Virus record (IMG/VR): IMGVR_UViG_3300027057_000001
Coordinates: 1-64,000 of that record
Strand: one strand, 5' to 3'
Source: a virus
Length of the DNA: 64,000 bases
Shown in pieces: positions 14,255 through 24,552 of this stretch. The position numbers were made by a program, and so were the translations under genes. Numbering within the stretch: position 1 is the first letter of the stretch; each line of letters opens with the position of its first letter. The notes under the pieces were generated by a model. The model was not told where the DNA came from. It saw only the letters and a program-made list of their open reading frames with translations, and ran no database searches.

Positions 14255-14504
14255 GGGCCGGAATGGGGGCAACCCCAAATGGCCCTGCTGTCGGAGGCCA
14301 TGGCCTGCTAGCGGTTCACACTGCGACAGCGAGGCTCTAAGACGCTTGGGCCGCGAGGCACGTACAGTAAGCCCTCGTGCTGGGGATCGAGGCCCCAGGT
14401 GGGTAAAGGGTGGTTCGACTCCCCCACGGAGCCCTGTTTCACTGGGAATCACCTCCCGGGGTGTAGCCCGGGGTCGGACGCCTCATCCGGCTCCGGGCAT
14501 TTTT
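14255..14504 (+). ncRNA. putative structured ncRNA with T-loop-like hairpins
   Basis: TTGACA-16-TAAGAT promoter (14219), several hairpins, GGTTCGACTCC, terminator. Confidence 0.5.
14466..14504 (+). terminator. rho-independent terminator
   Basis: GCCCGGGGTCGGA/TCCGGCTCCGGGC stem followed by ATTTTT. Confidence 0.75.
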
Positions 14505-23303: not shown

Positions 23304-23514
23304 GCAGTGGGAGATGGAGATCGAGGCCCCAGAGACCTGTCCCGTGTGCGGAGGCGACAACAGCGAGAGCGCCAGCGGGTTCTGCTCCCTGGCGTGCGAG
23401 AACGCCTACATGGACGAGCAGCGCAGGCGCGACGACGAGTACGCGCGGGACCTTCAACTGGAGATCCAGGAGTACCCGCCCGACGTGGTGAGAAAAATCA
23501 TGGGAGGGTGTTGA
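23287..23514 (+). CDS. small Zn-finger protein
   Basis: CPVCG..FCSLAC. Confidence 0.6.
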   Translation: MRRRTEQWEMEIEAPETCPVCGGDNSESASGFCSLACENAYMDEQRRRDDEYARDLQLEIQEYPPDVVRKIMGGC

Positions 23515-23538
23515 CAATAGCAAACCAGTGCTTAGATT
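23511..23538 (+). promoter_or_regulatory. early-type promoter driving the ncRNA array
   Basis: TTGACA-atagcAAACCAgtgct-TAGATT. Confidence 0.8.
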
Positions 23539-23781
23539 GAGTTCAGGCAGGGAGGAACGGAGGCCGACGATGAGCTAGAGAAAAGCCGATACCCCGCCAG
23601 CCAATGGACAAAGTGATGGCTGGGGCGAGGCGGGGTGGCGAGATACCAGCCGACTTCAACCATAGAGCCCCCAACGGGCGGGGCAGAAAGCGAGAGGTTC
23701 GACATGGTCTAAGTCAGGGGCAGGAGAGCGGGTGACCCGGCACCTTCCTCCACAGCCCCATCGCAGCCGGGTGGCCGATAT

Positions 23782-23967
23782 GCCCAGTAGAAGCAGCGAC
23801 GGGTCAGCGTTGCCCCCTAGCCAGGGGCTTGAAAGACCCGGTCACCACGCGAGGATTGTTCCACGCGGGTGGAGGTGGATGGCCCCACTTTGTAGCGGTG
23901 GCGCGAATGCTTCGTCCATGAGCCTGGCTAGCACATGGATTCGGTTCAACTCCGATGCTGGGCACCA
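23782..23967 (+). ncRNA. expanded tRNA-like RNA 1 (186 nt)
   Basis: acceptor GCCCAGT/GCTGGGC plus ACCA; T-arm TCGG-TTCAACT-CCGA. Confidence 0.7.
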
Positions 23968-23979
23968 ATGAGGTCTTTT

Positions 23980-24163
23980 GGCTCGTGGAGCAGCGCATCG
24001 CGCAAGTCTGAACGCCTTGGCCAGCGGGAGGATGCGGTGCCACCCGGAGGGGTGGAGAAGGGGCTGACCTCTTCTTCTCGTAGCAGGGGCGAATGCTCCA
24101 AGCCCACCCGTGCAGGTCAGCAGGGGGTGGGTTCGCCGGGTTCGATCCCCGGACGGGTCACCA
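23980..24163 (+). ncRNA. expanded tRNA-like RNA 2 (184 nt)
   Basis: acceptor GGCTCGT/ACGGGTC plus ACCA; T-arm CCGGG-TTCGATC-CCCGG. Confidence 0.72.
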
Positions 24164-24167
24164 TTAT

Positions 24168-24360
24168 GGTCTTGGGAGCAGGTTGACGGTCAGTGCAGGG
24201 TGGAGCGCGACGGCGCGGAGACACCCGGCTGCATACGGACCTGGGCAGGTGTAGCCTTCTCCCCCTCTCCAGCCCTGCCTGGAAGGTCGTCGGGTTGATC
24301 GCCGATGGACGCCTTGTGGGTCTGGCGGAAGCGTGGGTTCGAGGCCCACGGGGGCCACCA
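24168..24360 (+). ncRNA. expanded tRNA-like RNA 3 (193 nt)
   Basis: GGTCTT/GGGGCC plus ACCA; T-arm CGTGGG-TTCGAGG-CCCACG. Confidence 0.6.
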
Positions 24361-24394
24361 GTTGACAAGTGTTTTTGAGTGTGTAGGTTGAGAA

Positions 24395-24499
24395 CGCTGC
24401 GGTTGTCCTCCGCAGTAGGTGATCCGACGTAAGTCTCTATCCGTCGGATTCTCCGTCCTAGAGCCCCCTGGGGTGGTGCCCGGGGGGCTCGCTTTTTGT
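24395..24499 (+). ncRNA. putative three-hairpin small RNA
   Basis: TTGACA-16-TAGGTT promoter at 24362, two hairpins, terminator, no ORF. Confidence 0.6.
24461..24499 (+). terminator. rho-independent terminator
   Basis: GAGCCCCCTGGG/CCCGGGGGGCTC stem then GCTTTTTG. Confidence 0.8.
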
Positions 24500-24552
24500 T
24501 CTGGGTGTGGACCCCATGGTAGGGTGCGGGGCTTTGTGAAGGGAGGTGGTCC

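Follow-up and report, generated by a model that had tools for sequence, protein, structure and literature searches.

Two neighboring tRNA-like RNAs of a large tailed phage each carry two hairpin loops that are complementary to one another, and this loop complementarity is real, non-random, and statistically sound. In models of the folded RNAs, the two loops likely form a loop-loop pseudoknot in both units. The explanation that we favor, at somewhat under an even chance, is that this pairing (K) is a static clasp of the kissing-loop type, formed within one molecule of a tRNA-scaffolded stable RNA.

The array and its tRNA-like units

The window analyzed here is the first 64 kb of a 100.7-kb phage contig from IMG/VR (63% G+C, ~53% complete). 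Its genes for portal, head protease, major head, and tail sheath proteins mark the source as a large tailed phage. The RNAs with the loop pairs are situated in an ORF-poor part of the window, in an array that runs from a strong promoter-like site through a 235-nt leader RNA, three tRNA-like units, and a second promoter-like site to a small RNA and a terminator. The elements are as follows.

23511-23538, plus strand: promoter-like site (TTGACA, 16 nt, TAGATT), 10 of 12 matches, 0.1 expected in shuffles
23546-23781, plus strand: leader RNA ("unit 0") without tRNA-like features, conserved in part in the related phage G001
23782-23967, plus strand: unit 1, 186 nt, fold z-score -2.97
23980-24163, plus strand: unit 2, 184 nt, fold z-score -1.7
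24168-24360, plus strand: unit 3, 193 nt, with 5' words GGAGCA and GACGGUCAG, T arm at 24333-49, and ACCA end
24363-24500, plus strand: second promoter-like site (TTGACA, 16 nt, TAGGTT), small RNA, and intrinsic terminator

The promoter-like site at 23511-23538 would drive the whole non-coding cluster. Its core is 93% conserved in G001, similar sites (TTGACA-N17-TAGRTT) recur within the window, and from this site onward the first intrinsic terminator, at 24461-24500, lies downstream of the array, in a region conserved in G001 and in a second relative, G007. The leader segment 23683-23773 is 81.5% identical to L003:3562-3652 of G001. The leader (window 23546-23781; L003:3395-3650 in G001) opens in the manner of an mRNA: a GGAGG-type site precedes a frame of two codons, ATG AGC TAG, whose counterpart in G001 reads ATG GAC TAG. 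Further along, the G001 counterpart of ATG GTC TAA is ATG GTC TGA, with the tiny frames preserved and the stop codon changed. ATGGTCT or ATGAGGTCT is found again in the spacers that precede units 2 and 3. A coding function for the region was rejected, the 83-aa frame at 23935-24186 having neither a ribosome-binding site nor a PHROG match.

A T arm with a UUCRANN loop, followed by an acceptor strand, a discriminator, and CCA, is found at three sites, the only credible ones in the record, and these define the three units. U-1/G+1, the T loop (UUCAACU, UUCGAUC, and UUCGAGG, respectively), and A73-CCA are intact in all three, and the partner strand of the acceptor stem is present at the expected place, with 7 of 7 pairs in units 1 and 2 and 6 of 7 in unit 3. 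The parts of units 1 and 2 are listed below.

23782-88 / 23957-63, plus strand: unit 1 acceptor stem, with an eighth pair A23789-U23956
23790-95 / 23908-13, plus strand: unit 1 helix P2
23796-23907, plus strand: unit 1 insert
23914-23940, plus strand: unit 1 pre-T hairpin
23941-23955, plus strand: unit 1 T arm, 4-bp stem and loop UUCAACU
23964-67, plus strand: unit 1 ACCA end
23980-86 / 24153-59, plus strand: unit 2 acceptor stem
23987-92 / 24094-99, plus strand: unit 2 helix P2
23993-24093, plus strand: unit 2 insert
24103-24131, plus strand: unit 2 pre-T hairpin
24136-24152, plus strand: unit 2 T arm, loop UUCGAUC
24160-63, plus strand: unit 2 ACCA end

With lengths of 186, 184, and 193 nt, compared with 70-95 nt for a canonical tRNA, the units hold much more than a tRNA-like frame. 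Units 1 and 2 each contain an insert of about 105 nt closed by P2, a 6-bp helix directly after the acceptor stem (GAAGCA/UGCUUC in unit 1 and GGAGCA/UGCUCC in unit 2). The pairing of P2 is kept between the two units through one double change, from A-U to G-C, and its 3' side is marked by the conserved word GCGAAUGCUYC. The acceptor stem, P2, the pre-T hairpin, and the T arm meet in a predicted four-helix junction with few or no linker bases in units 1 and 2. The acceptor/T-stem split of unit 1 is 8/4 and not 7/5, a geometry known from rare tRNAs (PMC5389517).

No D arm or anticodon arm occupies its standard position: unit 1 has only D-arm-like and anticodon-arm-like stretches, and unit 2 has neither. 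A cloverleaf-like fold of the 5' half of unit 1 is 15.7 kcal/mol worse than the fold with P2, which competes with the D-arm-like local pairing in this unit; the D arms of real tRNAs are also weak under these energy rules. ARAGORN reported 0 genes across the window and across the complete record, with poor fits only at lowered thresholds, and Rfam searches over the array (RF00005, tmRNA, or other families) gave no match at the gathering score or at E <= 10. An attP-type tRNA fragment was ruled out by the presence of the 5' acceptor strands.

Complementary loops in units 1 and 2

The original prediction paired CTAGCCAGG (23817-23825) with CCTGGCTAG (23923-23931) in unit 1 and GCTGACCT (24063-24070) with AGGTCAGC (24114-24121) in unit 2, and all four words were found exactly there. 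The four strands are placed in the fold as follows.

23817-23825, plus strand: unit 1 K 5' strand, CUAGCCAGG, covering the 7-nt loop of hairpin 23812-23828 (CUAGCCA) and two bases of its stem
23923-23931, plus strand: unit 1 K 3' strand, CCUGGCUAG, covering the 7-nt loop of the pre-T hairpin (CUGGCUA) and the base pair that closes it
24063-24070, plus strand: unit 2 K 5' strand, GCUGACCU, tip of hairpin 24055-24079
24114-24121, plus strand: unit 2 K 3' strand, AGGUCAGC, loop of the pre-T hairpin

In the nested ensemble of unit 1, the probability of being unpaired is 0.70-0.94 across the seven loop bases of the 5' strand and 0.92-0.99 for the loop bases of the 3' strand. In unit 2, the 3' strand is open (1.00 for 24114-24119), and the 5' strand is exposed at 24064-67 and paired at 24068-70, which leaves four of its eight nucleotides exposed in the nested fold and three stem pairs that must open.

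The longest perfect Watson-Crick complement measures 9 bp in unit 1 and 8 bp in unit 2, compared with 6-7 bp for ordinary helices. It reaches no further than one or two bases past the loops, and the flanks of the words are unrelated; an inverted duplication as the origin of the word pairs was therefore rejected. When the pre-T loop was set against the shuffled upstream domain, the probability of a complement at least as long as the observed one was 0.002 in unit 1 and 0.013 in unit 2. A second score compared all hairpin loops (±2 nt) of the minimum-energy fold with one another and kept the best complement. The score of unit 1 (8 bp) was reached by 0 of 250 dinucleotide shuffles and that of unit 2 (7 bp) by 1 of 250, and the maximum among 588 random 186-nt stretches of the source phage genome was 6. 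The complementarities thus exist, as had been proposed; they lie in or next to hairpin loops and are longer than chance would give. A test on duplex energy was weaker than the test on length (P = 0.06 for unit 1 and 0.36 for unit 2). CTAGCCAGG and CCTGGCTAG occur once each in the 100.7-kb record. Each of the unit 1 words combines the palindromic sites CTAG and CCWGG, whose order is opposite in the two words, and TAGCCA has only two occurrences in the record.

The K pairing of units 1 and 2 crosses helix P2 and is thus a pseudoknot in the model, in agreement with the pseudoknot or loop-loop contact originally suggested. In both units, the strands lie in hairpin loops, offer at least six contiguous Watson-Crick pairs, and cross another helix, cleanly in unit 1 and with the 5' strand half buried in its stem in unit 2. 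With the 6-nt cores of unit 1 held single-stranded, the predicted energy equals that of the free fold (-86.2 kcal/mol), the two 7-nt loops CUAGCCA and CUGGCUA being displayed, and the core duplex (-7.1) brings the total to -93.3 kcal/mol. In unit 2, holding the cores single-stranded gives -88.2 against -91.0 kcal/mol for the free fold, a cost of 2.8 kcal/mol, and -95.2 with the duplex. Since forcing K into a nested fold costs 8.6 kcal/mol in unit 1 and 12.7 kcal/mol in unit 2, the pair appears to sit on top of the nested fold.

The two paralogous K pairs use different words, yet dock on the same-position hairpin just before the T arm. The original prediction saw the same pairing logic in both units and placed the 5' partner in an anticodon-position loop. 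The first claim stands for the docked pre-T hairpin, which is the same in both units, but not for the 5' hairpins, which differ. The second applies to unit 1, where a hairpin of 5 bp with a 7-nt loop, at unit nt 31-47 and after the D-arm-like stretch, serves as the 5' partner, but fails in unit 2, where the 5' word is at unit nt 84-91, in a hairpin that is not homologous in position to that of unit 1. In our reading, this unit 2 hairpin aligns with the unit 1 hairpin at 23872-23891, just upstream of the conserved GUAGC...GCGAAUGCU stretch. Because the 5' word of unit 2 sits in a different hairpin, the units reach the same pre-T loop from non-homologous places, which is convergence or a shift of partner and not a conserved pairing.

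Unit 3 shares the 5' words (GGAGCA and GACGGUCAG) and lacks the 3' strand of P2; its fold z-score is +0.53. No loop-loop pair better than chance was found within unit 3 or between it and the rest of the array, the best one, of 3 bp, being ordinary. In this unit, GCAGGG (24195-24200) and GGCAGG (24244-24249) can each pair with CCCUGCC (24273-24279), which gives two mutually exclusive helices.

Relatives and origin of the units

Among the capsid relatives, those whose genomes are complete (190-198 kb) have ordinary tRNA genes in arrays of 32-37. The T arm and acceptor of unit 2 are identical at 28 of 33 positions to tRNA-Glu(UUC) of the related phage G025, the acceptor stem being that of the G025 tRNA apart from one C-to-U change, and the 5' stretches of units 1 and 3 resemble the D loop of the same tRNA, followed in unit 1 by the anticodon-arm-like hairpin with the 5' word. 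Because of these matches, we consider the units to be tRNA-derived, and by their sequence they are predicted to be stable-RNA genes. Complete or large relatives (L238, L239, and L240) hold 25-37 tRNA genes in one array, compared with none in the 100.7-kb record, and by this comparison the three odd units are the only tRNA-like genes in the DNA available for the source phage. The missing half of its genome may hold an ordinary tRNA array.

No orthologue of the array was recovered. A blastn search of 23500-24520 against GenBank phage records gave none of use, nor did searches of IMG/VR, including with the flanking proteins, and of GTDB species genomes. The array is absent from the syntenic place in the nearest relatives with a readable region there, namely, G001, G007 (90% capsid identity), and L111 (77% identity in the downstream gene). 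T-arm-plus-CCA units were absent from both strands of 60 JGI metagenome loci with the downstream gene, and 28 capsid relatives, with their whole records, showed large normal tRNA arrays and none like that of units 1-3. DNA patterns made from the conserved GCGAAUGCU word or from the pre-T hairpins retrieved only ordinary tRNAs, a tmRNA 3' end, and attP-core-like tRNA 3' fragments. In G001, both the leader RNA and the small RNA are retained, with a different structured RNA of 160-170 nt in place of the array. This replacement (L003:3655-3815) is unrelated and very stable (z = -3.7), is closed by a long helix, and contains neither a T arm nor a loop-loop complement.

Other unusual tRNA-like elements were observed in these phages. 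One of ~110 nt (window 14322-14432 and, on the minus strand of G001, L171:1500-1600) is ~88% conserved between the two phages and has two T-loop-type hairpins, with loops AUCGAGG and UUCGACU. The G001 copy ends in CCA, the copy of the source phage does not, and the closing stem (GGCUCU.../...GGAGCC) resembles the acceptor stem of unit 2. In G021, a capsid relative with a complete genome of 191.6 kb, a permuted element at L239:5840-5960 lies inside the array of 37 tRNAs. Its order is T arm, CGCCCCC (acceptor 3'), 7-nt loop ACCAAGC, GGGGGCG (acceptor 5'), and D arm; immediately downstream of it are an ORF of 528 aa that has no Pfam match and a gene with an ARPP-1 domain. The element received no Rfam call. 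Finally, G023 has an unannotated tRNA-like gene of ~78 nt (L240, complement of 2417-2495), missed by ARAGORN, in which an anticodon stem of 7 bp bears a loop with the anticodon CAU; its D arm is very short, and ACCA is encoded.

Interpretation of the loop pair and known counterparts

In the favored explanation, units 1 and 2 would keep the acceptor/T-arm minihelix and the encoded ACCA, the rest of the tRNA having been replaced by a domain of ~105 nt. The pre-T loop would pair with the loop of an insert hairpin through a 6-bp core, extendable to 9 bp in unit 1 and 8 bp in unit 2, and this clasp would fold the insert back onto the tRNA-like core to give a compact, nuclease-resistant particle. 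RNase P and 3' trimming may release the units from an early transcript, as suggested by U-1/G+1, A73-CCA, and the short spacers. The sequence features, their statistics, and the thermodynamic compatibility are established here; from them we infer transcription of the units, a pairing confined to single molecules, and a structural role for this pairing. As a guess, the particle might be a decoy or sponge for a tRNA-binding factor. Several points speak against a clasp. The array has no orthologues, the 5' partners are in non-homologous hairpins, and unit 3 is pairless; the fold z-scores are modest (-3.0, -1.7, and +0.5) and the duplex-energy signal is weak. In addition, nine base pairs would be long for a loop-loop helix.

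The same observations could mean that the units have no selected function and are decaying or recently rearranged copies of tRNA genes in a lineage-specific insertion, with accidental complementarities, which we consider unlikely but take seriously. The absence of the array from every relative with a readable syntenic region would fit such a history, as would the degenerate look of unit 3 (z = +0.53, 6 of 7 acceptor pairs, no P2, and no K), the lack of homology between the 5' partners, and the weak energy-based P values. However, the complementarity is confined to the loops, and chance would have to account for two independent events, each reached by at most 1 of 250 shuffles and by 0 of 588 natural stretches, that involve the same pre-T hairpin. 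The promoter, U-1/G+1, the T loops, and the ACCA ends are, moreover, intact in all three units, which argues for maintained genes.

The loops may instead pair between molecules, in dimers or chains of tRNA-like RNAs, or within an unprocessed precursor, although we find this improbable. Two mutually complementary loops on one RNA permit reciprocal dimers equally well, a 9-bp loop-loop helix would form more easily between molecules than inside a 186-nt fold, and neither the shuffles nor the genomic stretches separate pairing in cis from pairing in trans. There is also a precedent in ROOL and GOLLD, in which covariation first suggested that kissing loops were tertiary contacts and these proved to be bridges between chains (PMC12286853). 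Intramolecular pairing is nevertheless favored by local concentration, and the loops lack the palindromic self-complementarity typical of symmetric dimers. In unit 1, the arm bearing the 5' loop (6 bp, a 6x6 internal loop, and 5 bp) roughly matches in length P2 together with the pre-T hairpin (6 + 10 layers), so that the two loops could, in our view, meet side by side.

It is still less probable that the pairing is one state of a conformational switch, masking an anticodon-like or target-binding loop until a protein, the ribosome, or another RNA releases it. The 5' partner of unit 1 would suit this role, as it is a homologue of a tRNA anticodon arm (5-bp stem and 7-nt loop, with a CU start and an A end) and follows a D-arm-like stretch resembling the D loop of the relatives' tRNA-Glu. 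The outer K pairs compete with two local stem pairs in unit 1 and three in unit 2, and the acceptor 3' strand offers the 3' word of unit 1 (pairing at 23922-28) a second partner that matches it 7/7. However, the 5' partner of unit 2 is away from the anticodon position, the analysis turned up neither a ligand nor a target site nor a second conserved conformer, and the unit 1 words are present nowhere else in the genome. As the 6-bp core of unit 1 is predicted to form at no cost to the nested structure, there is no balanced alternative fold, and a static contact is favored over a switch. Equally improbable is an ordinary nested long-range helix, an anticodon-stem equivalent that would close the inserted domain as P2 does in tmRNA in the absence of the local hairpins: the K words do form the longest perfect helices of their units, but the forced helix destroys P2 and the pre-T hairpin at the energy costs given above, has a probability of 0.000 in the nested ensemble, and would displace a P2 that both units share with a compensatory change. 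There is, in our view, a small chance that the loops are assembly or control elements of a new tRNA-scaffolded phage RNA, forming head-to-tail dimers or oligomers, or holding an anticodon-like loop shut until a host factor, such as a tRNA-targeting defense nuclease, engages.

The units combine two known kinds of RNA, the tRNA-like stable RNAs of phages and kissing-loop pseudoknots. In purine and lysine riboswitches, the L2-L3 loop-loop (kissing) contacts hold neighboring hairpins together. Similar to these, the units have two loops of one RNA that pair by Watson-Crick bases and would organize a multi-helix junction, and their 6-bp K core is of the usual kissing-loop size. They differ from the riboswitches in the possible extension to 8-9 bp and in that K joins a tRNA-like core to a large insert, with no known ligand and no covariation support. 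Among phage RNAs, we know of no loop-loop pair described for RNAC and RNAD of T4. These two are stable RNAs in the tRNA region of that phage with no known role (PMC3014915). Like them, the units are phage-encoded, non-decoding, linked to tRNA genes, and presumably tied to tRNA processing; however, they share no sequence match with RNAC and RNAD, exceed them in length (184-193 nt), and are arranged in tandem, apart from any tRNA cluster in the 100.7 kb.

Two other families have a comparable architecture. In tmRNA, as in the units, an acceptor stem, a T arm, and a CCA end frame a large structured insert with pseudoknots, and the 5' stretch CGACGGG of unit 1 recalls the tmRNA D-loop word. However, the units are about half the size and have no tag reading frame, and position 3:70 is C-G, C-G, and U-G in units 1, 2, and 3. 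A tmRNA identity was rejected on the lack of G3:U70, and neither ARAGORN -m nor Rfam found one. Bacterial Y RNAs such as YrlA mimic tRNA (PMC4201824), and YrlA, also present in phages, shares with the units a tRNA-like module fused to another RNA domain. The permuted order described for YrlA Y RNAs is seen in the G021 element; the units, in contrast, are not permuted, their acceptor stem being made by the 5' and 3' termini, which carry CCA. A Y RNA identity was rejected because the acceptor 3' strands do not pair with the following sequence and Rfam gave no match, and no TROVE (rsr) match was found in the 100.7-kb record, itself 53% complete. ROOL, GOLLD, and OLE are RNA-only assemblies (PMC12286853). 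Often associated with phages or tRNAs, they resemble the units in having complementary loops that could bridge copies, but they measure 500-800 nt and have strong covariation, compared with two orphan RNAs of ~185 nt here, with no evidence of multimers.

From a biological perspective, phages carry many tRNA-like RNAs with unknown jobs, and RNAC and RNAD of T4 have gone unexplained for decades. The array is an orphan without evolutionary support, and its value is therefore moderate. The sequence alone nevertheless yields a structural hypothesis that mutations can test, namely, a tRNA acceptor/T-arm frame with a large insert pinned by a loop-loop pseudoknot. If true, nature would have its own version of the "tRNA scaffold" engineered for the expression of folded RNAs, and loop mutants would give a handle for finding what the particle binds. 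If the pairing is intermolecular, these small phage RNAs would join the short list of natural RNA-only assemblies.
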